Positions 14,529-34,055 of a stretch of DNA of 64,000 bases are shown in pieces. The notes under the pieces are model-generated. The model was not told the DNA's origin and made no database searches. It saw only the letters and a list, made by a program, of their open reading frames with translations. Made by a program: the position numbers and the translations under genes. Numbering within the stretch: the first letter of the stretch is position 1; each line of letters begins with the position of its first letter. The stretch spans positions 93,352 to 157,351 of the forward strand of contig CAZCXU010000001.1 in the NCBI GenBank assembly GCA_964502885.1, written 5' to 3'. The stretch comes from an uncultured Gammaproteobacteria bacterium (GTDB lineage: Bacteria > Patescibacteriota > Microgenomatia > CAZETR01 > Amesbacteraceae).

Positions 14529-15647
14529 ATGAAAACAACAGTTTTACAAAGTGATCTGGCAAAATGTTTGGGAACAGTCAGCAGAGTGATACCCAGCAGA
14601 GGGCAGTTGCCTGTGTTGGCAAATGTGCTATTGGAGGCACGCAAAGATGGATTGACCCTAGTAGCAACAAATCTGGAACTTGGAATTCGTGTAATGGTGG
14701 GGGGAAAGATTGAGGAGGAGGGTGACATAACTATTCCGGCGAAAAACTTAACTGAATTTGTATCATCGTTGCCTGCAGGGAGCGTTGATCTATCGACTGA
14801 TGGGGAGAAGATGCTTATTAAGGGCGGAAAGCTATCTGCGACCTTTACAGGGATTTCAGCGATGGAATTTCCGGTGGTACCAAAGATCGAAAGTGTACAA
14901 GGTGGACGAATAGTAAAGATTAAAAGGGCGATGATGGAAAAAGTTGCAAAACAAGTTGCTTTTGCTGCAGCTACAGATGAGAGTAGGCCAGTTTTGACAG
15001 GTGTGGTTTTTATGAGTGAGGGAAATATATTGAAAATTACGGCAAGTGATGGATTTCGATTGAGCAGGAGATTTATTGAGATGGAAAGGGGGTTATGGTT
15101 ATCGGATAAAAGGTTGATTCTTCCGGCAAGAACACTATTGGAGATGTCAAGAATTGCAGCAGAGGGTAAAAAGGAAGAGATTGAGATGGCTGAAATAGCT
15201 GAGAATAACCAGGTTATTATGGCTTACGATGGAATTCAGCTTACATCGCGGATACTGGAGGGTAATTTTCCTGATGTAGAAAAGATTATTCCCGTGGATA
15301 CCAGAACAAAGATTACTCTTGATAGGCAGGAAATGCTGCGGGCGGTTAAGGCAGTGGGGATATTTGCAAGGGACAGTTCGAATATTATCAGGCTTAGAAT
15401 TCAAGATGGCGGGATGATGGTGGAGGCAAGCGCTACTCAGACAGGAGAGAGCACTGTTGAATTGGAAGGGGAGAAGACTGGAGACGATGGACAGATTGCT
15501 TTCAATTACCGGTTTGTGTTGGACTTTTTGAATAGTGTGGATAGTGAGAGAGTTACCTTTGGAATGAATGACAGCCTGGCCTCAGGGTTGTTTGGAATTG
15601 ATGGTGACAATGAATTGCTGCACTTGATAATGCCGGTAAGAGTCTAA
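14529..15647 (+). CDS. dnaN: DNA polymerase III beta sliding clamp
   Basis: 372 aa with three-domain clamp architecture. The N-terminus reads MKTTVLQSDLAKCLGTVSRVIPSRGQLPVLANVLLEA. Confidence 0.9.
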   Translation: MKTTVLQSDLAKCLGTVSRVIPSRGQLPVLANVLLEARKDGLTLVATNLELGIRVMVGGKIEEEGDITIPAKNLTEFVSSLPAGSVDLSTDGEKMLIKGGKLSATFTGISAMEFPVVPKIESVQGGRIVKIKRAMMEKVAKQVAFAAATDESRPVLTGVVFMSEGNILKITASDGFRLSRRFIEMERGLWLSDKRLILPARTLLEMSRIAAEGKKEEIEMAEIAENNQVIMAYDGIQLTSRILEGNFPDVEKIIPVDTRTKITLDRQEMLRAVKAVGIFARDSSNIIRLRIQDGGMMVEASATQTGESTVELEGEKTGDDGQIAFNYRFVLDFLNSVDSERVTFGMNDSLASGLFGIDGDNELLHLIMPVRV

Positions 15648-16161: not shown

Positions 16162-17028
16162 TTAACCACCGCAGAAATAATTTTCAGGACGAACCCAAAC
16201 TCCGTCTATCTGTGCCTCTAGGTGAAGGTGTGTATTGTTTCCCTGATCAAATAGTGCGGTAACAACTGTACCAGATATGGCATCTGTAGCGTAGGAAGAT
16301 GGCACCATAACATGAGTAAGTACTAAGTGGACAGATGTTGTGCCAGACGTTGTGTCGCAGTAGATGGTATTTCCGACTGAACCATTGGCGAATCCGTAAC
16401 GACATGACCAATTTACACTGACACCGTTTACTTGTGGAAGGACCACTCTGGTATCAGAGGAGAATACGTCAGCTGCAAAACCATATTCTGAGCACGAAGC
16501 TCCTCCCCCGGGCTGGTTACAGCGATTTCCATCAGGTGGGGTGGAGGTCCGACAACCGGACCCTTGTGGTATAGAGTAACAACTACCTCCGTATACGTCT
16601 TCCCAGTAATAAGAACTACCGTGTCCTCCCGAGCGATTGTGTTCCTGTGTGGGATTGTAAGAACCAAGAGATATGACTCCTCCAGGGATAGGGCAACTGC
16701 TGGGGTCAGCAAAACCTCCTCCGGGATCAAAAACTCCACCACCTCCAAAGCCGAATCCAAAACGAGAAACCGGAGTTACGAATCCTGAGCTGTTAATTAC
16801 TATTACAGCCATTAGGATGAAGCCAAAAAATATCGCCGTTGCCAACAATGCGATGAAAGCTGTTCCCAGTAGAGTGACTGCGTCGGCAATAAGGTGTTTT
16901 TTGAAATCTGTACCAAATGTTAGAAGTTTGCCGTAAGAAAAGCTTGATATTTTGGTGATATTAATGCTAAAAGCTGATCGAAGGCGACCAATGAGAGGAT
17001 TTATGGGGCCAATAGATAAACTAGCCAT
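16162..17028 (-). CDS. Putative membrane-anchored cell-wall hydrolase (M23-like C-terminal motif), Gly/Cys-rich
   Basis: TM helix near the N-terminus, then a GFGFGGGGVFDPGGG tract and a Cys-rich middle. The C-terminal ...GNNTHLHLEAQIDGVWVRPENYF resembles the M23 HLHFE...G..VDP motif. Confidence 0.3.
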   Translation of the reverse strand: MASLSIGPINPLIGRLRSAFSINITKISSFSYGKLLTFGTDFKKHLIADAVTLLGTAFIALLATAIFFGFILMAVIVINSSGFVTPVSRFGFGFGGGGVFDPGGGFADPSSCPIPGGVISLGSYNPTQEHNRSGGHGSSYYWEDVYGGSCYSIPQGSGCRTSTPPDGNRCNQPGGGASCSEYGFAADVFSSDTRVVLPQVNGVSVNWSCRYGFANGSVGNTIYCDTTSGTTSVHLVLTHVMVPSSYATDAISGTVVTALFDQGNNTHLHLEAQIDGVWVRPENYFCGG

Positions 17029-17033
17029 TATTC

Positions 17034-17321
17034 TTAATGATGATTAATTTCTTCAAGTAATATGAGCGGAAGTTTGAGCAAATGATCCTTTTCTTCCTGA
17101 TAAGGGTCGGAGAAATGTTCATCTGTAGAGTGTGTTTCCACTTCGCGGCGAAGCTCTTCTGTGCTTTTGTGGAGGACCTGCCCAGCCCATTGCCAAAGCG
17201 GGTCAGCGTCTGTTTTGAACTGATCAAAATTATGACAGGAATTACAGATTTCAATTACGGCGTTTTCCAGACTGCTGACGACAGATGGATTTATGTAGTC
17301 AGGGTAGGCAAAAGTGTTCAT
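17034..17321 (-). CDS. Hypothetical small protein in the T4SS-like operon
   Basis: 95-aa ORF, acidic, translationally coupled to the VirB4 stop. Confidence 0.3.
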   Translation of the reverse strand: MNTFAYPDYINPSVVSSLENAVIEICNSCHNFDQFKTDADPLWQWAGQVLHKSTEELRREVETHSTDEHFSDPYQEEKDHLLKLPLILLEEINHH

Positions 17322-19183
17322 TTTGATTCAGGAACCAGTATTGGTTTGGTTTGAGTTTCAGCTTGTTTTTGAGCTAATATTTCGGAGGGTTTGGTGGTAA
17401 TTAGCTTGTGTTCGTCCGGGGATGCTACAAAGCGAACAGCTACGTGATTGTTTCCTGCAAAAAACAGACCTTCTCCAACGTTTGCTGACAGGAGAAGGTG
17501 TTTTTCTCCCTCGGAGAGATAGAAGACCTGGGAAATTTTGTCGACTCCCGCTGGTGATTGTTTCATGAGTATTTGTAGGGAAGAACTGGTGACGATGGCT
17601 TTGCCGTAATCAGTGTTCAAAAAGTCTTCTACGTCCTGAGTAATAGTGGTAAGACCGAGAAAATACTTACGAGCGCGTTTGGCGACGCTGTAGAGGAAAC
17701 TGGCTGAGTCGGGATAACGCATGAGATACCAGGCCTCGTCTACCACAAGAATGCGTTTCTTGAGGTCGCGGCGCATTTTTGTCCAGATATAGTCAAGAAT
17801 GAGAAAGATAGCAATGGGCTTGAGAGAATCTTCGAGATCGCGGACAGAAAAAACTGTAAATTGATTTTTTAGTTGAATATTTGATGGCTGATCGACTATT
17901 CCGGTAAAACTTCCCTTTACAAATCGTTCTAGGCGATCAGCAAGAGATAGGGCTATGGGTTCTTCCATGCCAATGAAAGCTTTGTAAAGATCTTCCATTA
18001 GCGGGGGAGTATTTTTTTGTGTAGCGGGATCAGGGGTGATACCTTTCATACGATAAGCGAGATTGAGGGCGCGATCGAGAAGTGCGTCTTCTGTGGGGCT
18101 AAGGTTTCCCATGATGACTTTGAACATGGAATGCAGCGATTGAATTTTGAGATTAAGCTCGTTTTCATCTGAATTTTGGGTAAGAAGGGAAAGATCAAAG
18201 GGGTTGATGCGATTTTGAGAATTGTAGGAGAAATTGATGTAGTCGCCTCCTACGGCATCACAGAGGGCTTTGTATTCGTTTTCAGGATCTATAACGATTA
18301 TTTCTGTACCAAACATCATGGAACGAACCAGTTCAAGTTTAATGGTGTAAGACTTTCCCGCACCGGATTTGGCGAATACTACTGAGTTGGCGTTTTCCAG
18401 AGAGAAGCGATCAAAAATGACCAAACTGCCGTTGTGCTGATTTATTCCATAGAGGATGCCGTCATTGCTGGTGAGCTCTGATGAGGTGAAAGGGAAGGTG
18501 GTGGCCAGAGAGGTGGTGTCCATGTTTCTGGTGACCATAAGATGGTCGATACAGGTGGGGAGGGTGGTTTTGAAACCTTCAGCCTGCTGGAGGAGTGTGG
18601 GTGTAGAGGCCACTAGAAGAGATGAAAGGGAGCTAGTGACCTGTTTACTGGCAGTTTCAAGTTCGGAGGGGGAATCGGCGGGAATGGTGACATAGAGAGA
18701 GAATTGAAAGAAGCGTTCGATGCCTTTGACGAGTTGATCCTGAAGAGCCAGAGCGTCTTCGAGTTTGGCTTGGGTTACAGGATCGACAACGCGGCCGCGT
18801 TGGGCGTCAGTGTTTAGCTCGGCTTCCATTTCGGCAATCTTTCGACGCAGATCGTCGAGCGTGGACTTGCTTTCTACAGGATAGATGAACATGGAAATAT
18901 TTAGTGAATGGTCAAAATTAATGATGGGACTAAGCCAGTTGCTGGAGACGAAGCGGCGGTTTATTGAGGTGAAGTAGGTGCGGAAATATGTGTCGTTGAT
19001 TTTTAATGAATTGAAATCGATGGTAATGTTTTGTGGGGCGATGATATCCTTGACTGTTTTGGCCTGGGATAATTCTTTTTGGGGGAGAGCCATATTTGTG
19101 TCTGGGACGTTACCGGAGACCTGAGTTGCAGGAGTGGCAGTTTTTTTGACGGGGGTAAGGTTAGGGAGTTTTGGTAGCTTCAT
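17318..19183 (-). CDS. Type IV secretion / conjugation ATPase VirB4 family (C-terminal ATPase portion)
   Basis: Walker A VVFAKSGAGKSYTIK, Walker B ILVVDEAWYLM, and the general VirB4/TraE/CagE architecture. Confidence 0.85.
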   Translation of the reverse strand: MKLPKLPNLTPVKKTATPATQVSGNVPDTNMALPQKELSQAKTVKDIIAPQNITIDFNSLKINDTYFRTYFTSINRRFVSSNWLSPIINFDHSLNISMFIYPVESKSTLDDLRRKIAEMEAELNTDAQRGRVVDPVTQAKLEDALALQDQLVKGIERFFQFSLYVTIPADSPSELETASKQVTSSLSSLLVASTPTLLQQAEGFKTTLPTCIDHLMVTRNMDTTSLATTFPFTSSELTSNDGILYGINQHNGSLVIFDRFSLENANSVVFAKSGAGKSYTIKLELVRSMMFGTEIIVIDPENEYKALCDAVGGDYINFSYNSQNRINPFDLSLLTQNSDENELNLKIQSLHSMFKVIMGNLSPTEDALLDRALNLAYRMKGITPDPATQKNTPPLMEDLYKAFIGMEEPIALSLADRLERFVKGSFTGIVDQPSNIQLKNQFTVFSVRDLEDSLKPIAIFLILDYIWTKMRRDLKKRILVVDEAWYLMRYPDSASFLYSVAKRARKYFLGLTTITQDVEDFLNTDYGKAIVTSSSLQILMKQSPAGVDKISQVFYLSEGEKHLLLSANVGEGLFFAGNNHVAVRFVASPDEHKLITTKPSEILAQKQAETQTKPILVPESK

Positions 19184-19832
19184 TTTTGACTGATGGAACG
19201 GGAACTTTTGGTAAGGTAACGTTTGTTCCCATTACATCCTGATTATAGGAATTAAAAAATAACTGTAATAGTTCATTTGAGGTTATTTGGCGCCCTTTAA
19301 GACCTATGCGAGCGAGAAGTCGCAACAAATGATCTCTTTTGGGAACAAGGTTTGTAATGGCCCGATCAACTATATAGTCTTTGGGGAGAGTGGTATTTGC
19401 TGACTTACCTCCCAGAACTTTCAGCGAAGAACCAACACCTAATTCAAGTGAACTAAATGGCAAAGATATGTAGAATTTTTTATCCAACACATTTCCCTGA
19501 CGAACGATGGCTTTGACGAAGTCGCGATATTTAGTAAGCTGTTCCTTGAGCTTTGATGTGGTGATTTGGGCAAGGTGAGTGTCCAGTTTTTCGATATAAC
19601 TGGAAATATCTTTTCGTTTGCTGATGAGAACGATTTGGATGGAAAAAGTGAGTGAGTTTAGAAGCTGTGCGTAGGCATAAATGGTGGCGTCCTGCTCTCT
19701 TTCTGAAAGAAGACCAAAGTTGACGGCGCTAATTTCCATGACCATACAGGCCGAGCCGTCTTTGAGAATGACGATGTCGTTTTGAATATCTTCAATGTCC
19801 AGATGATCTTGTGTGCGGGGGGGGATAGTCAT
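19161..19832 (-). CDS. VirB4 N-terminal (CagE/TrbE/VirB-like) domain encoded as a separate ORF
   Basis: ...DIVILKDGSACMVMEISAVNFGLLSEREQDATIYAYAQLLNSLTFSIQIVLISKRKDI resembles the N-terminal domain of VirB4 homologues. It overlaps the VirB4 start by 23 nt. An alternative upstream start lies at 19907. Confidence 0.4.
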   Translation of the reverse strand: MTIPPRTQDHLDIEDIQNDIVILKDGSACMVMEISAVNFGLLSEREQDATIYAYAQLLNSLTFSIQIVLISKRKDISSYIEKLDTHLAQITTSKLKEQLTKYRDFVKAIVRQGNVLDKKFYISLPFSSLELGVGSSLKVLGGKSANTTLPKDYIVDRAITNLVPKRDHLLRLLARIGLKGRQITSNELLQLFFNSYNQDVMGTNVTLPKVPVPSVKNEATKTP

Positions 19833-19839
19833 ACTTTTT

Positions 19840-20931
19840 TTAGGTTTTTCCGTGAATAATAACAGGGCTAATAATACTGCCTTTGGCTTGAATAGAAACC
19901 GGGTCAAAAGTTAAACCTTCCTTTTCGGCGATGACGTTGTAAGTTCCGGCTGGCAAGGGAATGGCAATTTGGAACTGACCGAGACGATTGGTTCTTAGGG
20001 CCCGTGCAGGAATACCTGTCTTGGTATCAATAATCTCTACAGTTGTTTGTGCTAACGGCTGGGAAGCTGCATCTACAACCATGCCGGTGAGAATATTCGG
20101 ACTGGCAGGATTGGGAAGCTGAGTGGTGACTGTAGCAGATGGGGCTGAAGGAATATTTACAGGTTTGGGAAGCGGGGGAGTGTTAGCAACAACAGCTGAA
20201 ACACCAGAGGAGGTGAGAATTGGTGAGGTAGGAGTGGTGGGTGTAGCTAAAACTGTTTGTGGTGACGCTTCGGCGTGGGGTGTGCCTGCCGATGAGAAAG
20301 AGGTTGAGATGGTTGGAGTTGAGGTGGAATTTTTAACTGGAGATGTAAAGACTGGTTGGGCGCGTGCAGGGGAAGTGGGGATAGGTGCAGAAGAAGGGGC
20401 AGATGTAGGGATAATGGGGGGAACAGTTGAATTAGGAGCGGGTGTGGGAACAATGGAGGAAATGGCTGAGTTAGGAGTAGTTGATGGAGGTAGAGTTTTT
20501 GCGGTGGACATCTGCGGTTCAATTTTTATGGCAGCAGGAATTGGTGCCGGAACGGTGGTGACTGGTTGAGGTGTAGGTGGCGACGGTGGAGCGGCTGTTG
20601 CAGTGGGTGTGATTGGTGGGGGTGGGGCAAGGCTCGCAACGATTTCGTCAGAGATCCAGACATACTCAGTGGGAGAATAGATGGCTTTAAAAAAAGCGAC
20701 GAGCCAAGTGGTAAAGGGTCGATTGTTGATAGGGATAAAGGCCATGAGTGCACCCGTGGTGATGGAAATAAAAACCAGCGGGTATTTGATTATGGGGATT
20801 AATTGGAGACGGAAAATGAGCACCCCCACAACAATGCCTCCTGCCAGCTGGAGAAATTGCTTGAGGGTCATATCGCCCACGAGACGGAACTCGTAGGAGG
20901 AAATATTTTGCGGGACAGGGTGGTTATCCAT
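19840..20931 (-). CDS. PrgI/TcpE-like (VirB3-analog) two-TM protein with Pro/Thr-rich linker and C-terminal carboxypeptidase-regulatory-like beta domain
   Basis: N-terminal SSYEFRLVGDMTLKQFLQLAGG followed by two TM helices. A long PT-rich low-complexity region. The C-terminus reads GMVVDAASQPLAQTTVEIID...YNVIAEKEGL. Confidence 0.4.
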   Translation of the reverse strand: MDNHPVPQNISSYEFRLVGDMTLKQFLQLAGGIVVGVLIFRLQLIPIIKYPLVFISITTGALMAFIPINNRPFTTWLVAFFKAIYSPTEYVWISDEIVASLAPPPPITPTATAAPPSPPTPQPVTTVPAPIPAAIKIEPQMSTAKTLPPSTTPNSAISSIVPTPAPNSTVPPIIPTSAPSSAPIPTSPARAQPVFTSPVKNSTSTPTISTSFSSAGTPHAEASPQTVLATPTTPTSPILTSSGVSAVVANTPPLPKPVNIPSAPSATVTTQLPNPASPNILTGMVVDAASQPLAQTTVEIIDTKTGIPARALRTNRLGQFQIAIPLPAGTYNVIAEKEGLTFDPVSIQAKGSIISPVIIHGKT

Positions 20932-21005
20932 AAGCTGGTTTACATTTATCCTACCGCGTGAAAGAGAGTTTGCAAGCTAATGTTTTCACATACTAGAATA
21001 GAGTC

Positions 21006-21128
21006 ATGGTTGAGCAGGGAAACTTCAAAGATAAGGTTGCTTTTGTGTTTGGTGGTGCAATCCTTGGATTGATGGGATTGGTGGCTATAATCTTGAAGAT
21101 TGTGGGGAGGATTTGTGGCTGTTTCTGA
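21006..21128 (+). CDS. Possible 40-aa hydrophobic micro-protein (not in ORF track)
   Basis: Hand translation gives MVEQGNFKDKVAFVFGGAILGLMGLVAIILKIVGRICGCF*, a single TM helix, in the divergent region between the prgI-like gene and the 926-aa gene. Confidence 0.2.
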   Translation: MVEQGNFKDKVAFVFGGAILGLMGLVAIILKIVGRICGCF

Positions 21129-21181
21129 ATCTATCCTATAGTTGATAATTCGTGGTAAAATGAGAGTGTTATACTAATTTC

Positions 21182-23962
21182 ATGGACGATATGAGCAGCG
21201 AATCTAGACGGTCTGGTAGACTTGATTTTGACTCTGGCTTGGACGCTTCCCAAGTTAACAGAAGTGGGGATGTTGTAGGCCGAAATGTTCAAGAGTGGGG
21301 AGGGCGGGGGAGGCAGGTTGATGCGGAAGATGATAATTTAGAAATTTTCAAAAAAAAGTTGGAAGAAGCGGAGAACTTTTCTAGTATTCAGACTTATGTA
21401 GTGGGATATTTGGAGAGAGCTGAACAGAGAAACATCGTCGAGAGAAACGCAGCTTTGGAATTAATTCTGGAGAGGTCGAGATCATTTAAGGAGGTGGACT
21501 TAGGAATTCAAAGAGCTTTAAAAATCTCTCTAAAGGAGGAAAGGTTTGAAGAGTTGAAACAACTGAAAGACGAACAAGCAGCGTTGATGGTGGTGGCTGA
21601 TTCTTTAGATATGTTTGAAGGGGTAAGGCAGGTGGCTAGAGCAGGCCAGGGGGATTATTTACGAGGGAAGAGAGACGCGGATGAAATCTTTTCTGGAGCT
21701 GTGGGGCCTAATGTGTCAAATATAAGGGGTTCAGAGAAATTGCAAGGAATGGTGGACAGATACCAAGCCACAGCTGTAGGGGTGTGGGAATGGGCAAAAA
21801 GTGTGGCAAAGGGCGCGGATTATGAAGGTCGAACAAAAGAAGGTTTAGAGGCGTTGGGATGGGGAACTATCCCGTTTAGAGAAACATTGAACTTGGCAAG
21901 GGTTATAACGGAAGAAACTGTTTCTCCACCGGAAACTCCCCCCAGAGTTGGTCCATCTGGTGGTGACCCATCTCGAGGACCAGAAAGTGAGATTTTTGCT
22001 GAAAGGGCAAGGAGAGCAGAAGAGTTGTTGATAGCAACGGGATTAAGTAACAATGGTTTGCCAACATCAATTGCTGAGTTGGATGCTATTGAACAAGGGG
22101 CTCCATACATCGAAAAAACAGGCAGACCTTTGTATGGTGGAATTTTGCACAACCTGCTTAATAAATACATGACAGTTTCGGTGACTGAGGGAGAGAAAAG
22201 ATTGGGGTTGGCTAGTAAGGTGGAGGCTAATTTTACTTCTGATGAGTTGCTACTAATTAACGACAGAGATGTGAGGTTTTGGGTTCAAGTGTTTGCCTTT
22301 GGGTTTGGGTTGGGGTCTCGAACGAAAATTAATTCACATTTAAATGAGAATCAGGGTGGTTTTGTGAAGAATGCTTCAGGAGAAGCTCCCATGCAGGGGA
22401 GAAGTGTGGGTGAAATGTTAAATGCAATTGCAGGTAGGGATGTTGAGAATGATGAAAGAATGTGGGGAGAATATCGTATGGAGGCGGGGCGACGGGTGGC
22501 TCCCTCTAAGGATAATACATGGAATAAAGCTTTTGGAAATGTGCAGTATGGTGAATGGGAGGTTTTGCAGGTGGCGATGATGAGAGCAATAGTGTTGCGA
22601 GGGAATCCAGAGATTTCTTCGGATGAACTCGACACAATAATTCGTACTAATAAAAATTTACGTATGGGTTTAGCTGGGGCGAGGATGTATGCAATGGCGA
22701 CACATATGGGAGATCAGTTTGCAGTCGAATCTAAACACTTTTTAGCAACGGCGGCATATTTTGAGTTCCATTTTCAAGCAGCAGCCGTGGATAGATTGGC
22801 AAAATTATCATTACCACACAGGTTTAGGAGTTATATGAATTTAAACTCAGACTTATTTAAGGACTCGCAGGGAAACTGGAGTGATGAAACACTTATGCAT
22901 CGCAGATTATTTGCCCCTGATGTAATGCGATCAGTTATATGTTCTCCTGCTGTGTTTTCGCGAGGAGTACAAGGACCTAATCCGGAAGAATCAAGATATG
23001 AACCACAGGAGACAATCTTAGACTTGGCCATAAGGGGCATAGAAGTTCGACAAGATGCGTTGCAAACAGGGGTAACTCCTACCCGTATTTATAGTTTTGG
23101 AGTAAATGCGGCCGAAAAAATATTTAATTTGGCTTTTGGGGGTGGGACTCCCCCCGAAGGGCCGGATGTAAAGTTTGACAGAGATAAGGGATGGGCGTGG
23201 AATATGGGGCAGGAAATTCTGGCTACAGCGCGGGATTTGGGTTGGATTATGGAATATGAAAATACCATTAAACAAGAAGGGGTGAGTATGACTCCAGCTG
23301 AAGCGTCTCGACGAAGAAGAGCGATAGAACATAATATTCAGAGGTTGGGTATCACTAGGTTTATGGCTGGGTTGGGAATGAGAATAGAAAGAGGCGAAGT
23401 GCACAATTTAACCGATTTGGCGGCTTGGGCGGTGGGGATGGTGCTTGATAGAAGCGCCAAGTTTGTACATCAGATGAATTTGCCGGACGGAAGTGTCAAG
23501 CAGTTGGAGTTTCGCTGGGTATCCAAGGAGGACTCAGAATGGGTTGTAGAACATGGGTTGAATAAAAGAGATGAGAAGTGGGTGGATACGAGAAGCCCTT
23601 GGTCTTATGTTTATGAGTTAGTAACCAGGAGAGCACCTAATCGTAGAGGTGAGTGGGAAACTAAGCAGGGTGGAGAAGATGATTTATTGATTCAGGTATT
23701 GGTAGATAAGGCAGGAGGGGATGCTTCGGAAGCGGCTATGCACAGAAGAGACCAACTGAATCATCGGGTTAGAAAGTGGCGTTGGGGAGTAGGTGACTAC
23801 TTCTTGGGGTGTGGAGGGACTGCTACTAAAGAGGATGTGAGGCTTCGGGAGAGCTTTGAAGAAAAAATTGCGGGTGGTAGGGATATGCCCAAAATAGACA
23901 GGTTAACTCCATATCAAAAGGTGTACAACACATTGGACTTTTCTGATTACGGTAAAAGCTAA
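21182..23962 (+). CDS. Large soluble orphan protein (926 aa) adjacent to the T4SS-like genes
   Basis: Long ORF with no TM helix and no Walker motifs, Gly/Arg/Trp-rich. No family I recognise. Confidence 0.5.
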   Translation: MDDMSSESRRSGRLDFDSGLDASQVNRSGDVVGRNVQEWGGRGRQVDAEDDNLEIFKKKLEEAENFSSIQTYVVGYLERAEQRNIVERNAALELILERSRSFKEVDLGIQRALKISLKEERFEELKQLKDEQAALMVVADSLDMFEGVRQVARAGQGDYLRGKRDADEIFSGAVGPNVSNIRGSEKLQGMVDRYQATAVGVWEWAKSVAKGADYEGRTKEGLEALGWGTIPFRETLNLARVITEETVSPPETPPRVGPSGGDPSRGPESEIFAERARRAEELLIATGLSNNGLPTSIAELDAIEQGAPYIEKTGRPLYGGILHNLLNKYMTVSVTEGEKRLGLASKVEANFTSDELLLINDRDVRFWVQVFAFGFGLGSRTKINSHLNENQGGFVKNASGEAPMQGRSVGEMLNAIAGRDVENDERMWGEYRMEAGRRVAPSKDNTWNKAFGNVQYGEWEVLQVAMMRAIVLRGNPEISSDELDTIIRTNKNLRMGLAGARMYAMATHMGDQFAVESKHFLATAAYFEFHFQAAAVDRLAKLSLPHRFRSYMNLNSDLFKDSQGNWSDETLMHRRLFAPDVMRSVICSPAVFSRGVQGPNPEESRYEPQETILDLAIRGIEVRQDALQTGVTPTRIYSFGVNAAEKIFNLAFGGGTPPEGPDVKFDRDKGWAWNMGQEILATARDLGWIMEYENTIKQEGVSMTPAEASRRRRAIEHNIQRLGITRFMAGLGMRIERGEVHNLTDLAAWAVGMVLDRSAKFVHQMNLPDGSVKQLEFRWVSKEDSEWVVEHGLNKRDEKWVDTRSPWSYVYELVTRRAPNRRGEWETKQGGEDDLLIQVLVDKAGGDASEAAMHRRDQLNHRVRKWRWGVGDYFLGCGGTATKEDVRLRESFEEKIAGGRDMPKIDRLTPYQKVYNTLDFSDYGKS

Positions 23963-24020: not shown

Positions 24021-25751
24021 TTAGGATGTACCACCTGCGGGAGGGACAGGTCTTCGAATGTTGGCTTCTTTGGCTTTGGAGACTTGCTGACCAGCCGAAG
24101 TCAATTGTCCCATGGTGTCTTTGGCCATCTTTTCAACAAAGTCAGAAGGATCTACAGACTTACAGAACATGTTCTTAACCATGGTTGCTATGTTGGGGGC
24201 GAATGACATGGCCCCTACGAAAACTGCATATTGGACGAAAATATTACTGGGCATGTCAAATAAGGGAAAGTTGGCTTGGTTGTTAAAAAAGAAGCCTATG
24301 TCTCCGGCGAATCCTGGGACGGGAGTGCGAGTGTCAAACCCTGCATTAATTAGAATTGCTAAGAGAGCATATGTCACAAAAATTGAGGCATTGCCGATGA
24401 GACAAAGAAGCCATTTTTTAAATCCACCAAAATCAGATTTCTTCGATGGGATAATATCGAAAATAATTATTAGCGGGCCGGCGACAACCAGAAGATTAAA
24501 AGTAATAAAGGCGACCACAAATTGACCAATAATTCTGGCCCAGACGTAAATTGACCAAAGGAAGAAACCAAGAATGAAACCAGCTATGAGAACAACCACT
24601 CCTCCAGAAGCAAGATTAAGCAGTGCAGCTAGAACTATAGTGAGAATTATCAGTACTATGGAAACAACTATCCAAAAGGCAAGGAAATGCCAGACAAAAT
24701 CAAAACCGCCTCCAGCTAAGGTGGACATAGCAAGCGGCAAGTCAGTTATAATTGTCATGCCGATAGCTGTTTGGGCAAAATAAAGCATGCCAATAATTGC
24801 GGAAATGGCTAAGTACATCAGGTCAATTACGAAGCCGGCAATGGCGTATGAAAAGAGAACCAACACAATAGATATGGCAATGCGGGGAATAACCATTTGA
24901 ATTGTTACCGAGACTTGCGGAGATATTTTTGAACGGAACATAACCATAAAACCAGCAATGATGATAATCAGGGTGGTAATTAATAGTGCGATGTTTCGAG
25001 TGGCGATCCAAAATGCTCGGGTAGGAGAGTCTGTCGTTCCGGTACCACCCAAGCCAAGTCTTTCGTAACCACTTCCTTGCGCAAACGTGTCCGAGACAAT
25101 GTTGAGTTTTGAAGCAAGTTGTTTAGTTTCAGACCAGGCTGAGGGGAGGGTGTCAATTTGTGATGAGATATAGTAGGTAAGCTTGAGTACTCCAATATAA
25201 CTTTGACCTATGAATCCATATTTATTAACAAATGCCAGATCAGAAGAAGAAAAATTTTGAGTGACGAGCATGCTGCGGGCAAGATCTATCGCTGTGAGTA
25301 AATCAGTGATGTTTTGCAAAAGGGCTGCTGGATCAGGAGAAGATATAACTGAGGGAAATAACATCGAAGAGAGAGAGTTGAGGATCCAGTTTACTTGAGC
25401 GTAGGTGTAGCGCTCACCAAAAATTTCGTCGGGATTTGTATTGTCGAAAACTTTTTGCTGGAACTCCTGAATTGAAGGATTGTACCAAGGGTGTGGTGTT
25501 ACTTCGGCGAAGAACAAACGGGAGATTTCGTAGATGAGATAGGAGCAACGTGCTGCATCACCGAAAGGGTTGGGGGAAATGGCTTGACAGGCAGCATCTG
25601 CCTGAGCGCACAGCGGCTCGGCGGGATCACAGGTCGGTTGGGCAAGAACCGGTGATGGTGTGATAAATACTGTTAACCCTATGAATAGAAACGAAAGGGT
25701 AAAAAGGTATTTTTTAATCAGCATTGAAAGATGTTTTGTCATGGAAGACAT
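24021..25751 (-). CDS. Polytopic membrane protein with signal peptide and Cys-containing periplasmic N-domain; VirB6/TrbL-like candidate
   Basis: Signal peptide, then a roughly 230-aa extracytoplasmic domain, then about 8 TM helices with large loops, consistent with VirB6-like topology. Confidence 0.35.
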   Translation of the reverse strand: MSSMTKHLSMLIKKYLFTLSFLFIGLTVFITPSPVLAQPTCDPAEPLCAQADAACQAISPNPFGDAARCSYLIYEISRLFFAEVTPHPWYNPSIQEFQQKVFDNTNPDEIFGERYTYAQVNWILNSLSSMLFPSVISSPDPAALLQNITDLLTAIDLARSMLVTQNFSSSDLAFVNKYGFIGQSYIGVLKLTYYISSQIDTLPSAWSETKQLASKLNIVSDTFAQGSGYERLGLGGTGTTDSPTRAFWIATRNIALLITTLIIIIAGFMVMFRSKISPQVSVTIQMVIPRIAISIVLVLFSYAIAGFVIDLMYLAISAIIGMLYFAQTAIGMTIITDLPLAMSTLAGGGFDFVWHFLAFWIVVSIVLIILTIVLAALLNLASGGVVVLIAGFILGFFLWSIYVWARIIGQFVVAFITFNLLVVAGPLIIIFDIIPSKKSDFGGFKKWLLCLIGNASIFVTYALLAILINAGFDTRTPVPGFAGDIGFFFNNQANFPLFDMPSNIFVQYAVFVGAMSFAPNIATMVKNMFCKSVDPSDFVEKMAKDTMGQLTSAGQQVSKAKEANIRRPVPPAGGTS

Positions 25752-29484: not shown

Positions 29485-29880
29485 TTAGGAGCAGCCGATG
29501 CCTCTGGCTATACAGATATCAAATATTCCCAAATTGATACCGAGGAAAGTGCCAATAAGGTTGACTATTACGAATGCTGACAAGGTGATTATTAATCCTG
29601 CAAGAGAAAAGATAATTGTATTTCTTGCTTGTTCGGTTTGGGCTTTGTCTGCTCCTGCAGCTAGATACTTGTATCCACCAATAACCAGAAATCCTAAAGA
29701 AATGAAAACAAAAAGGCTGATGATTGCGGTAATCGCAGCGGCTATTACTCTATTTAGGTTCTGGAGCATTGCGGGCGGAGTAGGGTTTGCAATTGTTGTT
29801 TGAGCTTGAGCGACAGTAGGCCATGCTAATACGAATACAGATGCGGCCAACGTGATCAGTGAGCGAATTGTTGTGTACAT
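29485..29880 (-). CDS. T4SS pilin-like protein (VirB2/TrbC-like two-helix), paralog 1
   Basis: Signal peptide, then TM1-GADKAQTEQARNTI-TM2. It ends in a CxxxxxC tail. Confidence 0.55.
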   Translation of the reverse strand: MYTTIRSLITLAASVFVLAWPTVAQAQTTIANPTPPAMLQNLNRVIAAAITAIISLFVFISLGFLVIGGYKYLAAGADKAQTEQARNTIIFSLAGLIITLSAFVIVNLIGTFLGINLGIFDICIARGIGCS

Positions 29881-29960
29881 CTGTTTTTAATATAGGGCAA
29901 AAAAACAACCCCGGCAAGGGCCCGGGGTTGTTTTGGCCATTTCTGGCCGGTTCCAAAAAC

Positions 29961-30326
29961 TTATGAACCAATCGTTGCGAGATTGAATTCGATAAGGTTG
30001 ACGTTGAAGAGAACACGCAGAATGTACAGTAAGGCGTAAGCAGAGAAGACGATTGCCAAACCGATTAAGGCGGCAGTGATCTTCTTGCGAGCTTTTTCGG
30101 TACCTTCTTTGTCTCCACCAGCGAGAATCCATTGTAAACCACCCCAAAGTAGGATGATAAAGGAAGCTACGCCAGCGATACCCAACATAAGATTCAAGAT
30201 GGTTCTCAAGAAATCTGATGGGGTATAGTTCTTCAAAGTGTCGAAACGTGTATCGACGTTAGCCACGCTACCGACATCCGAGTCTGGAATAGGAAGAGCA
30301 AGTTGTGCAAGTAGTCTCATCATCAA
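29961..30326 (-). CDS. T4SS pilin-like protein, paralog 2
   Basis: LGIAGVASFIILLWGGLQWILAGGDKEGTEKARKKITAALIGLAIVFSAYALLYILRVLFNVNLIEF. Confidence 0.6.
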   Translation of the reverse strand: MMMRLLAQLALPIPDSDVGSVANVDTRFDTLKNYTPSDFLRTILNLMLGIAGVASFIILLWGGLQWILAGGDKEGTEKARKKITAALIGLAIVFSAYALLYILRVLFNVNLIEFNLATIGS

Positions 30327-30379
30327 ATCTCACCGCCTTTCAGTGGAAAGTATAACATAAAATCAGTGCCGGAGGCTAA

Positions 30380-30754
30380 TTAGAGGGGTGTGATAGTGTA
30401 CTCAATGAGATTGACGTTGAAGAGGGTACGGATGATATACAGAATCGCATAGGATGAAAATACGATAGCCAATCCTATGAGAGCATAGCTGATTTTGCGG
30501 CGAGCTTTCTCGACTGCGTCTTTGTCGGATCCAGCGGTAATCCATTGAAACCCACCTATTAGGAGGAATAAGAATGCGGCAACACCTGACAGGCCCAGGA
30601 GGGCAAGAATCGACGTGCGGATATAGCTGGCGGGCTGAATATTGTAGGTGTTAGCAAAAGGAGAGTTGGGGTCGCGTAGATCTATTAATTGCTGGGCATC
30701 AATAGAAGGAGGAAAGAGAAGCAAGCTTGCCAGGAGAGCGAGAATCAGTTTCAT
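30380..30754 (-). CDS. T4SS pilin-like protein, paralog 3
   Basis: Signal peptide plus ...WITAGSDKDAVEKARRKISYALIGLAIVFSSYAILYIIRTLFNVNLIEY. Confidence 0.6.
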   Translation of the reverse strand: MKLILALLASLLLFPPSIDAQQLIDLRDPNSPFANTYNIQPASYIRTSILALLGLSGVAAFLFLLIGGFQWITAGSDKDAVEKARRKISYALIGLAIVFSSYAILYIIRTLFNVNLIEYTITPL

Positions 30755-30782
30755 GTGAGTTCGAGTTTATAAGAAAGGGTTG

Positions 30783-31454
30783 TCAGTTACAAGGGATGCA
30801 GGTAATCAGGCCACATCCAGTCGTGCCGAGCGGAGTCCAAGAGCCGTTTGATTCGCATCGGAAACATGGACCATTTATGACAGATGTTGATCCTAACGTG
30901 CCTGCCGGAATGCATCTTCCAGTTGCAGATCCGCCACAGGCACACATGCCGGATGGTGGGGTGATGTCGCAGCCGGGATCTGTGGGGTTAGTACAAGGAA
31001 TCCCTGAATCCCAGGGATCACTACCAGGAGCAGGTGGGTTGGGGTCGTTGATCTGAGAGGAAATTTCCCCGATATGTCCGAGGTTGAATTGAATTAAATT
31101 GATGTTAAAGAGGGTGCGGAGAGCAAAAAGGAAACTGTAGGCTGAAAAAACAATTACCAGTCCAATTAAAGCCTGAACAACCTTTCTGCGGGCTTTTTCA
31201 ATTGCGTCTTTATCACCACCAGCCAGTATCCACTGAATACCGCCGATAAGCAGGAATATAAAAGAAAAAACTCCTGCCAGTTGGAGGAGAAGGTTTAGAA
31301 GTGTGGTCAATATCATTGATGGGGTGAGGCTGCGAATTGTCGTAAAATCCGGATCGACGTTTTGTTCTATGCCAATGTAGTCTTGTGCTTTTGCGGTTGC
31401 AGGCATTAAGAACATAGAAATAACTGTGGAGATGTGAACCAGGTGGTTTCGCAT
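30783..31454 (-). CDS. T4SS pilin-like protein, paralog 4, with C-terminal Cys-rich extension
   Basis: Pilin core (...WILAGGDKDAIEKARRKVVQALIGLVIVFSAYSFLFALRTLFNINLIQF) followed by a 90-aa tail carrying about 11 Cys. Confidence 0.6.
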   Translation of the reverse strand: MRNHLVHISTVISMFLMPATAKAQDYIGIEQNVDPDFTTIRSLTPSMILTTLLNLLLQLAGVFSFIFLLIGGIQWILAGGDKDAIEKARRKVVQALIGLVIVFSAYSFLFALRTLFNINLIQFNLGHIGEISSQINDPNPPAPGSDPWDSGIPCTNPTDPGCDITPPSGMCACGGSATGRCIPAGTLGSTSVINGPCFRCESNGSWTPLGTTGCGLITCIPCN

Positions 31455-31460
31455 GGGTAA

Positions 31461-31802
31461 TTAGAGGTTTCTTAAGGTGAATCCAATCGGATTTACATTA
31501 AATAGGACACGCAATATATAAAGAATGGCGTAGGAAGAAAAGACGATAACTAAACCTATCAGCGCGTTGATGATTTTACGGCGGGCTTTGTCGATACCAT
31601 CTTTGTCGCCACCGGCAGTAATCCACTGAACTCCACCCCAGAGCAGATAAATAAAGAAGCCAACACCAGCAAGACCCAAGAGAAGACTGATGGCTGTAGC
31701 GACATAAGCGGAGGGTTTGAGGTTTGTAATGTAGTCGTAGTTGCTGTCACCAGAATTGACAGTGATGGGAACAAATTGAGCCAATAGGTGTTGGTTGATC
31801 AT
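31461..31802 (-). CDS. T4SS pilin-like protein, paralog 5
   Basis: ...WITAGGDKDGIDKARRKIINALIGLVIVFSSYAILYILRVLFNVNPIGF. Confidence 0.6.
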   Translation of the reverse strand: MINQHLLAQFVPITVNSGDSNYDYITNLKPSAYVATAISLLLGLAGVGFFIYLLWGGVQWITAGGDKDGIDKARRKIINALIGLVIVFSSYAILYILRVLFNVNPIGFTLRNL

Positions 31803-32131
31803 AGTTCAGGAACGTTGAGGGAGAGAATCGAGACGCCAAATAACACTTCGATTATCCAAATGATTACGAATGAAGAAAGAAGTATGGCAATTCCAATAAG
31901 GGCATTACGAATACGGTGTGTGGCTTTCTGGACGCCTTCCTTATCTCCGCCGGCGGTGATATAGGCAAAACCACCCATTAACAAGTTGACGAAAAAATAA
32001 ATTCCACTTAATCCCATGACGGCATTTAAGACGTTTCTTAGTAGCAACTGGACCATGCTGTCAGCCTCGTTGACGTTGATATTTCCGATTTGACTGTTGA
32101 CCGCAGGGTTGACGATGGTAAACAGATACAT
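31799..32131 (-). CDS. T4SS pilin-like protein, paralog 6
   Basis: ...YITAGGDKEGVQKATHRIRNALIGIAILLSSFVIIWIIEVLFGV. Confidence 0.55.
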   Translation of the reverse strand: MYLFTIVNPAVNSQIGNINVNEADSMVQLLLRNVLNAVMGLSGIYFFVNLLMGGFAYITAGGDKEGVQKATHRIRNALIGIAILLSSFVIIWIIEVLFGVSILSLNVPEL

Positions 32132-32134
32132 ATT

Positions 32135-32554
32135 TTAAGGTGAAGCAACAATTAACTGCAATCCGAGACGAAAGATGTCCAATCCCAGGAATCGGCCAAT
32201 GATTCCAATTAGTCCGTATGATCCAACAACTATGAACATACCCAATATGGAAGTGGAAAGACGTTTTTTGCTTACCTCCACGGTATTTTTATCGCCACCG
32301 GCACCAATCCACTGCATTCCGGAAAGGACTATTTGATAGATGAACCAAAGTGACGCGACTATAGTGAGTAAACCGAGGATAGAAGAAACAAATTTTTCCA
32401 ACATATCTCCGGGCCCTCCACCTGTGCCAGTCATAAAAAGTCCTGAATGTCCAAATGTACCCAGAGGTCCGACACCGTCAATGTTTCCCAAGTTGACTTG
32501 AGCTAAAAGGTTTCTCATGGGGTGAATATCCGTGGTGAAATAAGCGTGTTCCAT
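32135..32554 (-). CDS. T4SS pilin-like protein, paralog 7
   Basis: ...WIGAGGDKNTVEVSKKRLSTSILGMFIVVGSYGLIGIIGRFLGL. The real start may be an internal Met. Confidence 0.5.
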   Translation of the reverse strand: MEHAYFTTDIHPMRNLLAQVNLGNIDGVGPLGTFGHSGLFMTGTGGGPGDMLEKFVSSILGLLTIVASLWFIYQIVLSGMQWIGAGGDKNTVEVSKKRLSTSILGMFIVVGSYGLIGIIGRFLGLDIFRLGLQLIVASP

Positions 32555-32874
32555 CCATTAATACCATACAGGAAGAGGCCGATGACGCTGGCGATGACTA
32601 ATGATCCGGTGACTATGGCTAGTCCCAGAAAGGATTGCCAAATGCGCTCGTGGGCTTTTTGGACCATTTTGGGGTCGCCATTTGCGCTTAAGTATCCATA
32701 CCCTGCCAAAATTAGATTGATCAATGTGTATATACCAGCCAGGATTATGGAGAGTCGGATGAGGCTGCTAAGAATTAAGATAAGACCTTCGCCCTGAGTG
32801 CCAGCTGCGAGTCTGGGATTGTTGTATCCGGATGTCCCAAATGGATTGTCGATAGTGCCGAATGCTCCTAACAT
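32515..32874 (-). CDS. T4SS pilin-like protein, paralog 8
   Basis: ...YLSANGDPKMVQKAHERIWQSFLGLAIVTGSLVIASVIGLFL. Confidence 0.5.
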   Translation of the reverse strand: MLGAFGTIDNPFGTSGYNNPRLAAGTQGEGLILILSSLIRLSIILAGIYTLINLILAGYGYLSANGDPKMVQKAHERIWQSFLGLAIVTGSLVIASVIGLFLYGINGWNTLISPRIFTP

Positions 32875-32880
32875 AGTTTT

Positions 32881-33231
32881 TTAGACGAATGGCGGGTCAA
32901 TTAAGTTTACACCTGTAATGGTAGATATAATCTGAAGTATAAAATAAGCACTAATGACTAGCAATAAGCCCAGAACTCCATAAGTGACGGAATTTTTTCC
33001 TTGCTGAACACGTTGTGGAGGGTTGATTTGTCCGCCAAAGATAATTAGTAAGTAACCTCCGTGGATGATGAGATAAATGAAATAAAGACTGGCGATTGCC
33101 ATGGCATTGAGGAGTAAGAGAGAGACAATATCGCCCAATTGACCACGGAAAGGGGAGGTGGCCCCAACGTTGGGATGGTTGACGAAAAACTTGTCTTGCA
33201 AGTTTACTGGCGGGTTAAGAAGCTGAAACAT
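32881..33231 (-). CDS. T4SS pilin-like protein, paralog 9 (divergent)
   Basis: Two hydrophobic helices flanking a ...GGQINPPQRVQQGKNSVTYGVLGLL motif. Confidence 0.45.
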   Translation of the reverse strand: MFQLLNPPVNLQDKFFVNHPNVGATSPFRGQLGDIVSLLLLNAMAIASLYFIYLIIHGGYLLIIFGGQINPPQRVQQGKNSVTYGVLGLLLVISAYFILQIISTITGVNLIDPPFV

Positions 33232-33234
33232 TTT

Positions 33235-33540
33235 TTAGATTAAGTTGGTGCGGGTAATAGTTTGAATTATTTGCAAAATAAAGAAGGCACTAACTACAGT
33301 AAGGAGGCCAAGAAGCGCGTTGGTGATCTGTCTTTTTATCTGCATGAGTTTGGCTTCGTCGCCCAGGCTTCCCATATATGCGAATCCCGCTGTAATCAGA
33401 TGGTAAAGAAAATAGAGTCCGGCTCCGGCCATGGCAAAGAGAATAGTGCGAGAGGCGATTGTTGAGGGTAGTGTGGCACTGGTCGAGAATCGGCCGGAGG
33501 TGTGGATGAAATCGGGAATCTGAGCTAAATGTGAGTTCAT
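33235..33540 (-). CDS. T4SS pilin-like protein, paralog 10
   Basis: ...YMGSLGDEAKLMQIKRQITNALLGLLTVVSAFFILQIIQTIT. Confidence 0.5.
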   Translation of the reverse strand: MNSHLAQIPDFIHTSGRFSTSATLPSTIASRTILFAMAGAGLYFLYHLITAGFAYMGSLGDEAKLMQIKRQITNALLGLLTVVSAFFILQIIQTITRTNLI

Positions 33541-34055
33541 TAGAGTCGGAAACCAAATAAGGAGAGACCTAAGACGTTAAATCCTAAGAAGTTGAGAACG
33601 ACGATGGCGGAAGTGATAAGAATTAAACCTAGTACTGCCGAGGTGAGTGTGTCTTTGGCGGAATTAATTTTTTTAGGGTCGCCTTCAGCGGTGGCAATAG
33701 TGAAACCCGCATATACGATCAGAAGAAGAGTAGCCAGGCCGGCCAAACCAACTGCCCAAGTAGCAATAATCCAGACTGTATTTTGAGTATCGGAGGTGGG
33801 TATACAACCTAAGGCTGTCCTAATAGCACCAGTGCCTGCACAAAAAGGATTTTGAGCATTACATTCTGCTACAGTGTCGCAACAAAGATGTTCCATAGGG
33901 TTTGCACATTGAGGGCGGGCGACACAGGGACTGTAAGTACCCCATATTGTTCGAGAACGGATTTCACACCAGCTGTAAGTTGGATCTGGGAGGGATAATA
34001 CTGACGTGACAAATAAAAGTGTTGTGATAAGTATTCTAAGTGGTGCAGATTTCAC
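33540..34055 (-). CDS. T4SS pilin-like protein, paralog 11, with N-terminal Cys-rich secreted module
   Basis: Signal peptide, then a roughly 70-aa module with 10 Cys, then the pilin core (...FTIATAEGDPKKINSAKDTLTSAVLGLILITSAIVVLNFLGF). Confidence 0.5.
   Translation of the reverse strand: MKSAPLRILITTLLFVTSVLSLPDPTYSWCEIRSRTIWGTYSPCVARPQCANPMEHLCCDTVAECNAQNPFCAGTGAIRTALGCIPTSDTQNTVWIIATWAVGLAGLATLLLIVYAGFTIATAEGDPKKINSAKDTLTSAVLGLILITSAIVVLNFLGFNVLGLSLFGFRL

Follow-up and report, generated by a model that had tools for sequence, protein, structure and literature searches.

In the portions of the literature available to us, the type IV secretion systems (T4SSs) of Patescibacteria are described as related to the MPF-FATA type, encoded near dnaA, accompanied by arrays of pilin genes and devoid of a relaxase (Quinonero-Coronel et al. 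2025, PMC12102498), and in Southlakia epibionticum, the sole species tested, epibiotic growth requires the system (Wang et al. 2023, PMC10633639). The same portions, and those of a further paper (PMC12857230), give no known substrate for it; the further paper also records that coupling-protein-independent T4SSs exist, namely Ptl and the Brucella VirB system. Here, we analysed a stretch of 64,000 nt (hereafter, the window; contig CAZCXU010000001.1, positions 93,352 to 157,351) from an uncultured bacterium that GTDB places in the Amesbacteraceae (Patescibacteriota, Microgenomatia). It holds a T4SS locus in which one gene (21182..23962, plus strand; hereafter, the target gene, and its product the target) encodes a large soluble protein and runs opposite to all of its T4SS neighbours.

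The locus of the window is like the described ones in its adjacency to dnaA and dnaN, in its genes for VirB4, TrsD, PrgI/VirB3, a polytopic VirB6-like protein and approximately 11 pilins, and in what it lacks: no relaxase was found near the cluster with NCBIfam, and no VirD4, TcpA or FtsK-like coupling protein in Pfam and NCBIfam scans of 35 of the larger open reading frames (ORFs) of the window. By type, the cluster belongs with the monoderm conjugation (MPF-FATA-like) systems. Its VirB4 shares 90% identity with the VirB4 of Amesbacteria RIFOXYB1_FULL_44_23, and the best matches all come from metagenome-assembled genomes of Microgenomatia. The surrounding machine is of a known kind; the target is a protein without a known family. 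Its gene is divergent from the block of PrgI-like, TrsD and VirB4 genes, whose first gene starts at 20931 on the minus strand, and convergent with the VirB6-like gene, whose stop codon (24021-24023) lies 58 nt past that of the target. These coordinates bear out the divergent transcription proposed in the initial annotation, which had been made from the sequence of the window alone. A reversed gene for a large soluble protein between prgI and virB6 is not described in the available portions of PMC12102498 and PMC10633639 or in the Patescibacteria passages of PMC12857230. The Southlakia locus (SEML1_0006-0019), as far as it is described there, has no such gene, its large proteins all being encoded on the operon strand and being membrane proteins or hydrolases.

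The target belongs to a class of large proteins whose genes keep a fixed place, in reverse orientation, between the prgI/virB3-like and virB6-like genes of the dnaA-proximal T4SS of Microgenomatia, and it represents that class in the window. We took 80 loci around VirB4 relatives from GTDB species representatives, 41 of which included at least 7 kb upstream of VirB4, and defined a slot ORF as one on the reverse strand, of at least 400 aa, at most six genes upstream of VirB4, without an N-terminal transmembrane (TM) segment and with at most one TM segment elsewhere. At least one such ORF was present in 38 of the 41 Microgenomatia loci, and in approximately 30 loci it was followed by a polytopic VirB6-like gene on the operon strand (470-640 aa). 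Two slot ORFs were found in up to 6 of the 41 loci by the automatic count, which takes in a few doubtful ORFs (L027, L067 and L081); locus L003 is a further two-gene case. The class proteins range in length from about 500 to 2122 aa, and most have no signal peptide and, a C-terminal tail aside, no TM segment. An informative Pfam domain was lacking in 46 of the 48 slot members. The two exceptions are an unrelated AAA_14/DUF4143 ORF and a 967-aa slot occupant of L040 (3116-6016, minus strand) with a PP2C Ser/Thr phosphatase domain at aa ~249-527 (E 1e-11) and a hydrophobic C-terminal tail; the C-terminal part of this PP2C member is homologous to the slot protein of L050. The target shares every feature of the class: an opposite-strand position in the slot, a length of 500-1300 aa, no signal peptide or multiple TM segments, a -10 box 4-9 nt before the start, and an acidic N-terminus of the form M-[ASPDG]-[EDN]. 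In addition, three other class members contain modules homologous to those of the target.

By sequence, the target has very few relatives. A word-index search of 5.8 billion clusters with the target returned the target alone, as did a search with a 15-sequence alignment of the class. An exhaustive phmmer search of 1.84 billion representatives detected two remote relatives, P0002 (1122 aa, E 1e-14, aligned to target residues 424-890) and P0003 (798 aa, E 2e-7, aligned to residues 94-241), and a search seeded with P0002 added P0004 and P0005. The P0002 locus (L001) reads dnaA, dnaN, ..., VirB4, TrsD, PrgI, P0002 on the opposite strand, a 597-aa VirB6-like protein, a 1111-aa protein and pilins. 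The slot is taken by P0004 in L002, by P0005 in L003 and by P0003 in L012, and with the further homologue in L083 all detectable homologues of the target are found in the T4SS slot. A look at phyletic distribution, which had been suggested along with the initial annotation, accordingly places the slot class in nearly all of the Microgenomatia loci compared and the target homologues in such loci only. The description of the target as an orphan nearly holds by sequence, with two weak relatives among 1.84 billion, and fails by position, where it has syntenic counterparts.

The class is built from modules that recombine between lineages. The N-module of the target matched L012 (P0003) and L083 only (BLASTP, 29% identity, E 5e-14), apart from a weak similarity to the middle of the L001/P0002 family (hhalign, 72%). 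Its C-module matched only the C-terminal half of P0002/L001 (BLASTP, 24% identity over 503 columns, E 2e-26), and domain iteration with the C-module gave no member beyond P0002/L001. P0004 is itself composite, with an N-terminal half in common with P0002 (39% identity) and a C-terminal half in common with a 1282-aa protein of L004 (33% identity). Profile-profile comparison with hhalign linked the target to L012 (96.7%) and to the L001 family (94.3%), and an all-against-all comparison added three links (L012-c10 at 97%, c4-c5 and c8-L014). When 50 slot occupants were clustered by BLAST, the target fell into a 19-member cluster held together by transitive links (15 distinct proteins after merging duplicate entries), and the remainder formed many small clusters. 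No common core was detected when the target and its modules were compared by hhalign with eight more distant syntenic clusters, and the all-against-all comparison likewise gave none for the clusters as a whole.

The slot class also diverges faster than any other gene of the T4SS cluster. Between the window and L001, identity is 84% for VirB4, 74% for TrsD, 71% for DnaA, 59% for DnaN, 44% for the VirB6-like protein, 41% for the giant secreted protein and 36-71% for the pilins, and it is 24% over 54% of its length for the target. The target was undetectable in 13 of the 15 compared loci, though VirB4 is 64-90% identical there. A separate observation concerns the opposite extreme: among the Amesbacteria (L001-L023), VirB4 is 74-90% identical versus 57-71% for DnaA and 45-59% for DnaN, an unusual constraint on the secretion ATPase.

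The target ORF begins with ATG and encodes 926 aa (104 kDa); a run of 926 stop-free codons at 45% GC would arise by chance with a probability of about 1e-23 (a rough estimate made by hand), and the ORF is a genuine, intact gene. The 19-residue Kyte-Doolittle mean peaks at 0.88, where a TM helix is expected at approximately 1.6, and this maximum together with the acidic N-terminus indicates that there is no signal peptide. The initial annotation had described a soluble 926-aa protein without a TM helix and with an acidic start, and all of this stood, the first 50 residues having a net charge of -4. Its further description as Trp/Gly/Arg-rich held for Arg (8.9% vs 4.7% in the other ORFs of the window) and Gly (9.3% vs 7.4%) and only marginally for Trp (2.2% vs 1.8%); Glu is also enriched (9.1% vs 5.1%). 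The whole protein has a net charge of -17 and a pI of 5.6. No internal repeats were found, nor a paralogue within the window.

Motif scans of the target for Walker A ([AG]x4GK[ST]), HxH or HExxH-type and Toprim-like motifs gave nothing. Pfam and NCBIfam returned zero matches even at E 0.01, including relaxase, primase, AAA and P-loop profiles, PADLOC returned no defence family at E 0.1, and PHROGs gave a single insignificant match (E 0.044); no toxin domain was indicated by Pfam, PHROGs or PADLOC. Nothing significant was obtained by searching the PDB with the target sequence or with profiles of the C-module, the N-module (best E 0.28) and two class clusters. With neither Walker A nor a TM segment nor an AAA/P-loop profile, the target does not have the features of a VirD4/TcpA or VirB11 ATPase, and without an HxH-type motif or a relaxase profile at E 0.01 it does not have those of a conjugative relaxase. 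It also departs from VirB8-like/PrgL proteins in having no TM helix, 926 aa and a mostly helical prediction (from low-confidence models). The absence of Walker, relaxase (HUH) and coupling-protein signatures reported initially was confirmed, and no clear homology to an enzyme family unrelated to secretion, the result that had been named as speaking against a role in secretion, came to light in these searches.

These features bear on the possibility that the target is a diverged DNA-processing protein (a relaxase, primase or anti-restriction protein) left from a former conjugative element. Its size is typical of relaxases, and the T4SS is of the MPF-FATA-like conjugation type with no relaxase found nearby, as in the available description of related loci (PMC12102498). 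However, the motifs and profiles expected of such a protein (HUH/HxH, Walker or Toprim-like; relaxase, primase or any other Pfam or NCBIfam family) are those that the scans just described did not find, an acidic protein of this kind is ill suited to DNA binding, and catalytic proteins keep conserved cores, whereas the class has no common core. We consider this origin very improbable.

Structure prediction and a Foldseek search, also suggested along with the initial annotation, were carried out and gave nothing usable. AlphaFold2 reached a pLDDT of 36.6 with the single sequence and 33.8 with a 5-sequence alignment, in which the N-module helices alone attained 60-80. Both low-confidence models are mostly helical with a small beta unit at aa 761-817, and no fold can be assigned because of their low confidence (pLDDT 34-37). 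Foldseek against the PDB with the low-confidence model gave no match at E <= 0.001 (TM-score ~0.06), and this result was discarded as meaningless.

The members of the class resemble each other at their ends. After start correction, position 3 was E, D or N in 25 of 29 members, whose N-termini read M-[A/S/P/D/G]-[E/D/N], and the net charge of the first 12 residues was -1.55 in the class, against +0.62 for a control set of 128 leaderless-like genes taken from the same loci (p 2e-10). The target shows this signature clearly (MDDMSSE...). At the other end, the last 40 residues had a mean charge of +2.5 in the class versus +0.1 in 259 soluble control proteins (p 1e-7). Common to the class are thus an N-terminus that is acidic and probably disordered and a C-terminus that is basic on average. 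A positive C-terminal charge is said to be the classical VirB/D4 transport signal. As to the C-terminal secretion-signal-like features that it had been suggested to look for, the tails of the class are basic on average and the tail of the target is only weakly so. A C-terminal motif derived from the seed sequences (hydrophobic-hydrophobic-S-x3-5-W-I) was dropped, as it was not significant in independent clusters (p 0.05-0.11).

Six points suggest that the target may be a dedicated T4SS cargo or host-interaction factor, a reading to which we give somewhat less than an even chance: its gene is tied to the locus and varies more than any other there, it carries no Sec signal, it is modular, its class is sometimes duplicated or fused to an enzyme domain, and it shares class-specific charged termini. 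The target would be made in the cytoplasm as dedicated cargo, and the translocon of VirB4, TrsD, PrgI and VirB6-like proteins would recognise it by its terminal features, without a VirD4-type coupling protein in the vicinity. Export would follow, either to the cell surface or into the host cell on which the epibionts depend, and there the variable modules of the protein could engage host-specific targets. Contact of this kind would account for the swapping of modules, for a second copy in some loci and for the fast divergence. Extended to the whole class, with a chance that we place a little lower, the proposal is that these proteins are the sought cargo of the Microgenomatia T4SS: modular, encoded in the locus, exported without VirD4 by means of a new signal (a disordered, acidic N-terminus, to which a basic C-terminus may be added), and with module swaps that track host specificity. 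The initial annotation had offered either a secreted substrate or effector, or a structural component; this was partly supported, in that the link to the T4SS is upheld by conserved synteny.

Several points weigh against export. Secretion is deduced indirectly, no usable structure of the target was obtained, and no VirD4 or TcpA-type coupling protein is present among the scanned larger ORFs of the window. The C-terminus of the target itself is weakly basic, with +1 in the last 25 residues. Effectors are often scattered round the genome, and a near-universal fixed position is unusual for them. Helical, partly disordered proteins can diverge fast without an arms race with a host. With BLAST or hhalign, no sequence link was obtained between the target and the more distant Microgenomatia clusters, and it is in part by position and composition that the class holds together. 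Finally, five members (L037, L040_967, L050_834, L053 and L066) have a hydrophobic C-terminal tail anchor, and a membrane-associated cytoplasmic protein fits these five better.

The tail anchors lead to a different reading, in which the target is not secreted and acts in the cytoplasm as an accessory of the T4SS. Docked on the inner side of the VirB4/TrsD/VirB6-like translocon, it could serve as a scaffold, gate, adaptor or regulator. Where other lineages have large hydrophilic domains fused to 'extended' VirB6 proteins, the target might provide such domains as a polypeptide of its own; alternatively, it might do the work of the coupling protein that is missing. An anchor would hold a large cytoplasmic domain at the membrane, a member of the class is present in nearly every locus in one fixed slot, its promoter region adjoins that of the prgI-virB4 operon, and no coupling protein is encoded among the scanned ORFs of the window. 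The sizes of the VirB6-like proteins agree with this: Southlakia, which lacks the reversed soluble gene, has VirB6-like proteins of ~1000-1090 aa, whereas those of Microgenomatia have only 470-640 aa, and extended VirB6 with large hydrophilic domains is a recognised type in the available portion of PMC12857230. The parts of a machine, however, normally co-evolve at the rates of their partners, and the target is far more divergent than the VirB6-like protein, PrgI and even the exposed pilins. Its modules are swapped between lineages, the class varies from about 500 to 2122 aa and from one to two copies per locus, the target has no NTPase motif, and no sequence or profile similarity to any T4SS family was detected in Pfam or NCBIfam. 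We regard an accessory of this kind as rather unlikely, though it is the strongest of the alternatives, and a cargo or host-interaction factor remains the reading that we tentatively prefer.

Upstream of the target lies a compact set of elements (Table 1). An extended -10 box (TGTTATACT) stands 6 nt before the ATG, and from this placement the target gene is predicted to have a promoter of its own, whose -10 position fits a leaderless transcript. A second, extended -10-like box (TGGTAAAAT) precedes it, a tandem arrangement that is conserved across Amesbacteria loci. Once starts had been corrected, a -10 box matching at 5 or more of 6 positions was located 4-9 nt ahead of an in-frame start in 29 of 44 class genes. 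The leaderless layout was rejected as a special feature of the target, since -10 boxes next to the ATG and missing Shine-Dalgarno sequences are general in this genome, and the layout marks only that the gene has a promoter of its own. Across the window, Shine-Dalgarno sequences are nearly absent, and in many operons the ATG of the first gene follows a -10 box at a distance of 6-9 nt, examples of such starts being 10735 (minus), 29460 (minus), 34081 (plus), 49806 (minus) and 50225 (plus); leaderless translation seems, from the sequence, to be the rule here.

Further upstream, the element CCTATAGT, with its palindromic CTATAG core, occurs once in the window and is a candidate cis-regulatory site specific to the target. 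It is kept before the slot gene in L001, L004 (both tandem genes), L007, L012, L017 and L018, that is, at seven Amesbacteria promoters, across genomes whose DnaA proteins are only 57-71% identical. Between this element and the start of the PrgI-like gene is an ORF of 40 aa with a single TM segment (MVEQGNFKDKVAFVFGGAILGLMGLVAIILKIVGRICGCF), which is conserved at the same place in L001-L005 (tblastn E 3e-9 to 2e-4), is called as a 42-aa gene in L003, and may encode a small membrane peptide associated with the T4SS. This ORF is itself leaderless from TAGAAT, with the promoter TTGCAA-18-TAGAAT. The adjoining region is mirror-symmetric, with opposed -10-like boxes, TAGGAT towards prgI (minus strand; this promoter was read by eye) and TAGAAT towards the 40-aa ORF (plus strand). 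The motif cgcgtgaa..tgcaa..ttttcaca recurs in many Microgenomatia T4SS loci, and a dimeric regulator of the T4SS operon probably uses the symmetric promoter as its operator. Because the promoter region of the target adjoins this divergent promoter shared with the prgI-virB4 operon, co-expression of the target with the machine appears plausible. Regulation specific to the gene, as the CCTATAGT element and the symmetric promoter suggest, counts in favour of the cargo reading.

The gap between prgI and the virB6-like gene accommodates other genes as well. In several loci, prgI is separated from the large slot gene by an inserted pair of ORFs (~120-165 aa) with the minimal-nucleotidyltransferase (MNT) motif GSxxxGxxxxxSDxD and the HEPN motif RNxxxH, as in MNT/HepT toxin-antitoxin modules. 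On the strength of these motifs, the gap is a predicted insertion hot spot, marked by MNT/HEPN-type pairs. The target could then be unrelated cargo of a recombination hot spot (a defence, anti-defence or selfish gene) with no mechanistic tie to secretion. The inserted genes point that way, since the gaps of L014, L015, L023, L027, L032, L033 and L053 hold the MNT/HEPN-type pairs, an ORF like an S-adenosylmethionine-dependent methyltransferase, or the AAA_14/DUF4143 ATPase, as do the apparent own promoter and opposite orientation of the target and the many slot-protein clusters that could not be linked by homology. Yet a random hot spot would hold diverse recognisable genes, and here all but two of the 48 occupants lack an informative Pfam domain and are alike in size and solubility, the slot is occupied in 38 of 41 loci, and the same leaderless layout and acidic N-terminal signature recur in 29 of 44. 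PADLOC found no defence family, the CCTATAGT element is kept across the diverged genomes named above, and the gene looks native, with no sign of recent import, as its GC content at third codon positions (0.40) differs by less than one standard deviation from the mean for the window (0.45 +/- 0.06). A passenger without a role in secretion is improbable on this evidence.

Table 1. Coordinates of the target gene, its upstream elements and the neighbouring T4SS features in the window, and of ORF pairs inserted in the same gap at other loci (numbered within those loci).
Feature	Position	Strand	Remarks
Target gene	21182..23962	+	Acidic soluble protein; local member of the positional T4SS-locus class
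N-terminal ~50 residues of the target	21182..21331	+	Acidic, Gly/Ser/Arg-rich, probably disordered; MDDMSSESRR...WGGRGR
N-module, aa 95-240	21464..21901	+	Helical; WEWA...GWGTIP motif
Linker, aa 246-268, VSPPETPPRVGPSGGDPSRGPES	21917..21985	+	Pro/Gly/Ser-rich; from translation and composition profile
C-module, aa 424-891	22451..23854	+	Conserved blocks ATxAYxxFH...AxDRxAK and DLxAWAVG
Extended -10 box TGTTATACT	21167..21175	+	6 nt before the target ATG
Second extended -10-like box TGGTAAAAT	21153..21161	+	Upstream box of the tandem
CCTATAGT element	21135..21142	+	Palindromic CTATAG core; candidate cis-regulatory site
40-aa ORF MVEQGNFKDKVAFVFGGAILGLMGLVAIILKIVGRICGCF	21006..21128	+	Single TM segment; ends CGCF; between PrgI start and target
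TAGAAT box of the 40-aa ORF	20994-20999	+	-10-like box
Mirror-symmetric divergent promoter	20947..21000	both	Palindromic TTGCAA at 20970-20975, GTGAAA/TTTCAC arms, inverted repeats I1 and I2
dnaA	12917-14275		Adjoins the T4SS cluster
dnaN	14529-15647		Adjoins the T4SS cluster
Big_5 protein and 95-aa ORF		-	Neighbours in the T4SS cluster
288-aa M23-like protein	16162-17028	-	N-terminal TM segment
VirB4 ATPase	17318-19183	-	NCBIfam NF045971 (CD1110 family, E 1e-112); Pfam P-loop_TraG
TrsD-like	19161-19907	-	NCBIfam NF041427
PrgI/VirB3-like	19840..20931	-	C-terminal CarboxypepD_reg domain; Pfam PF12666, PF13620; first gene of the divergent block
VirB6-like, polytopic, 576 aa	24021..25751	-	Signal-like N-terminus, many hydrophobic segments; no Pfam match
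Cys-rich secreted protein, 1220 aa	25798-29460	-	From translation
~11 VirB2-like T4SS pilin paralogues	29485-34055	-	PF18895 T4SS_pilin, NF045849
Pilin paralogue, 223 aa	30783-31454	-	Cys-rich C-terminal extension
tmRNA	40241-40639	-	Predicted by ARAGORN
MNT/HEPN pairs at other loci	L014 6250-7100; L015 6884-7805; L023 7478-8324; L027 6798-7641; L032 2572-3296		Read from motifs

Among the neighbours, the 288-aa protein downstream of VirB4 contains, besides its TM segment, a stretch rich in Gly and the motif HLHLE, which recalls M23 peptidases; it has no Pfam match and may be a cell-wall hydrolase (VirB1 analogue) of the T4SS, as far as its sequence suggests. The 1220-aa secreted protein contains Cys-rich and Pro-rich stretches and likewise has no Pfam match; together with the Cys-extended pilin it probably belongs to the surface or host-contact parts of the T4SS. 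Two observations concern the window at large. The GC skew on the plus strand is positive in every 2-kb bin of the 64 kb (0.04 to 0.45), is strongest where genes lie on the plus strand, and does not change sign at dnaA/dnaN, where the origin is expected. The predicted tmRNA has an unusually long 28-residue tag, ARVEGFVAKVNPFNSIFSTQFAPRMLYA, whose end is not the usual LAA.

The slot class offers a concrete, testable candidate for the cargo of the Patescibacterial T4SS; failing that, it is a candidate for a cytoplasmic part that is still missing. Its members can be located by position where sequence search fails, which is useful in genomes made up mostly of hypothetical proteins. Should the cargo reading be wrong, what remains is a machine locus of otherwise very high conservation in which one variable slot is itself kept in place and has a conserved promoter element of its own.

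Among known secreted proteins, CagA of the Helicobacter pylori cag T4SS is large, island-encoded, variable between lineages, without a Sec signal and without homologues, and its translocation, which is proven, uses Cag-beta and the chaperone CagF. The target would resemble it in its possible way of working, being likewise soluble, of ~100-140 kDa, encoded with a T4SS, variable and without a Sec signal. The two have no sequence relationship; export of the target is a deduction, no coupling protein is encoded nearby, and its divergence is far greater. VirE2, VirE3 and VirF of Agrobacterium are substrates of VirB/D4 with a positively charged C-terminal signal, and the C-termini of the slot class are likewise basic on average. 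The target differs from these substrates in its weakly charged tail, in that no R-x7-R-x-R-type motif was identified in it and no VirD4 receptor is nearby, and the acidic N-terminus, the distinctive conserved feature of the class, is not part of the VirB/D4 signal.

Polymorphic toxins and the Xanthomonas X-Tfe effectors, which reportedly carry an XVIPCD, share with the slot class the swapping of modules and the association with a secretion locus. The class differs in having no conserved XVIPCD-like C-terminal domain and no recognisable toxin domain, and both halves of the target vary, not the C-terminus alone as in polymorphic toxins. There is also no place for a downstream immunity gene, because the convergent VirB6-like gene follows directly.

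Extended VirB6 (PMC12857230) and the Southlakia proteins SEML1_0011 and SEML1_0013, with their ARM-repeat-like soluble domains, are, going by the descriptions in the available portions of these sources, also large, probably helical and associated with VirB6, and the VirB6-like proteins of Microgenomatia are short, as if their soluble part were encoded separately. The target is a member of neither the CagA-type effectors nor the extended VirB6 group: unlike extended VirB6, it is encoded by a separate gene on the opposite strand, which evolves much faster than the VirB6-like gene beside it.

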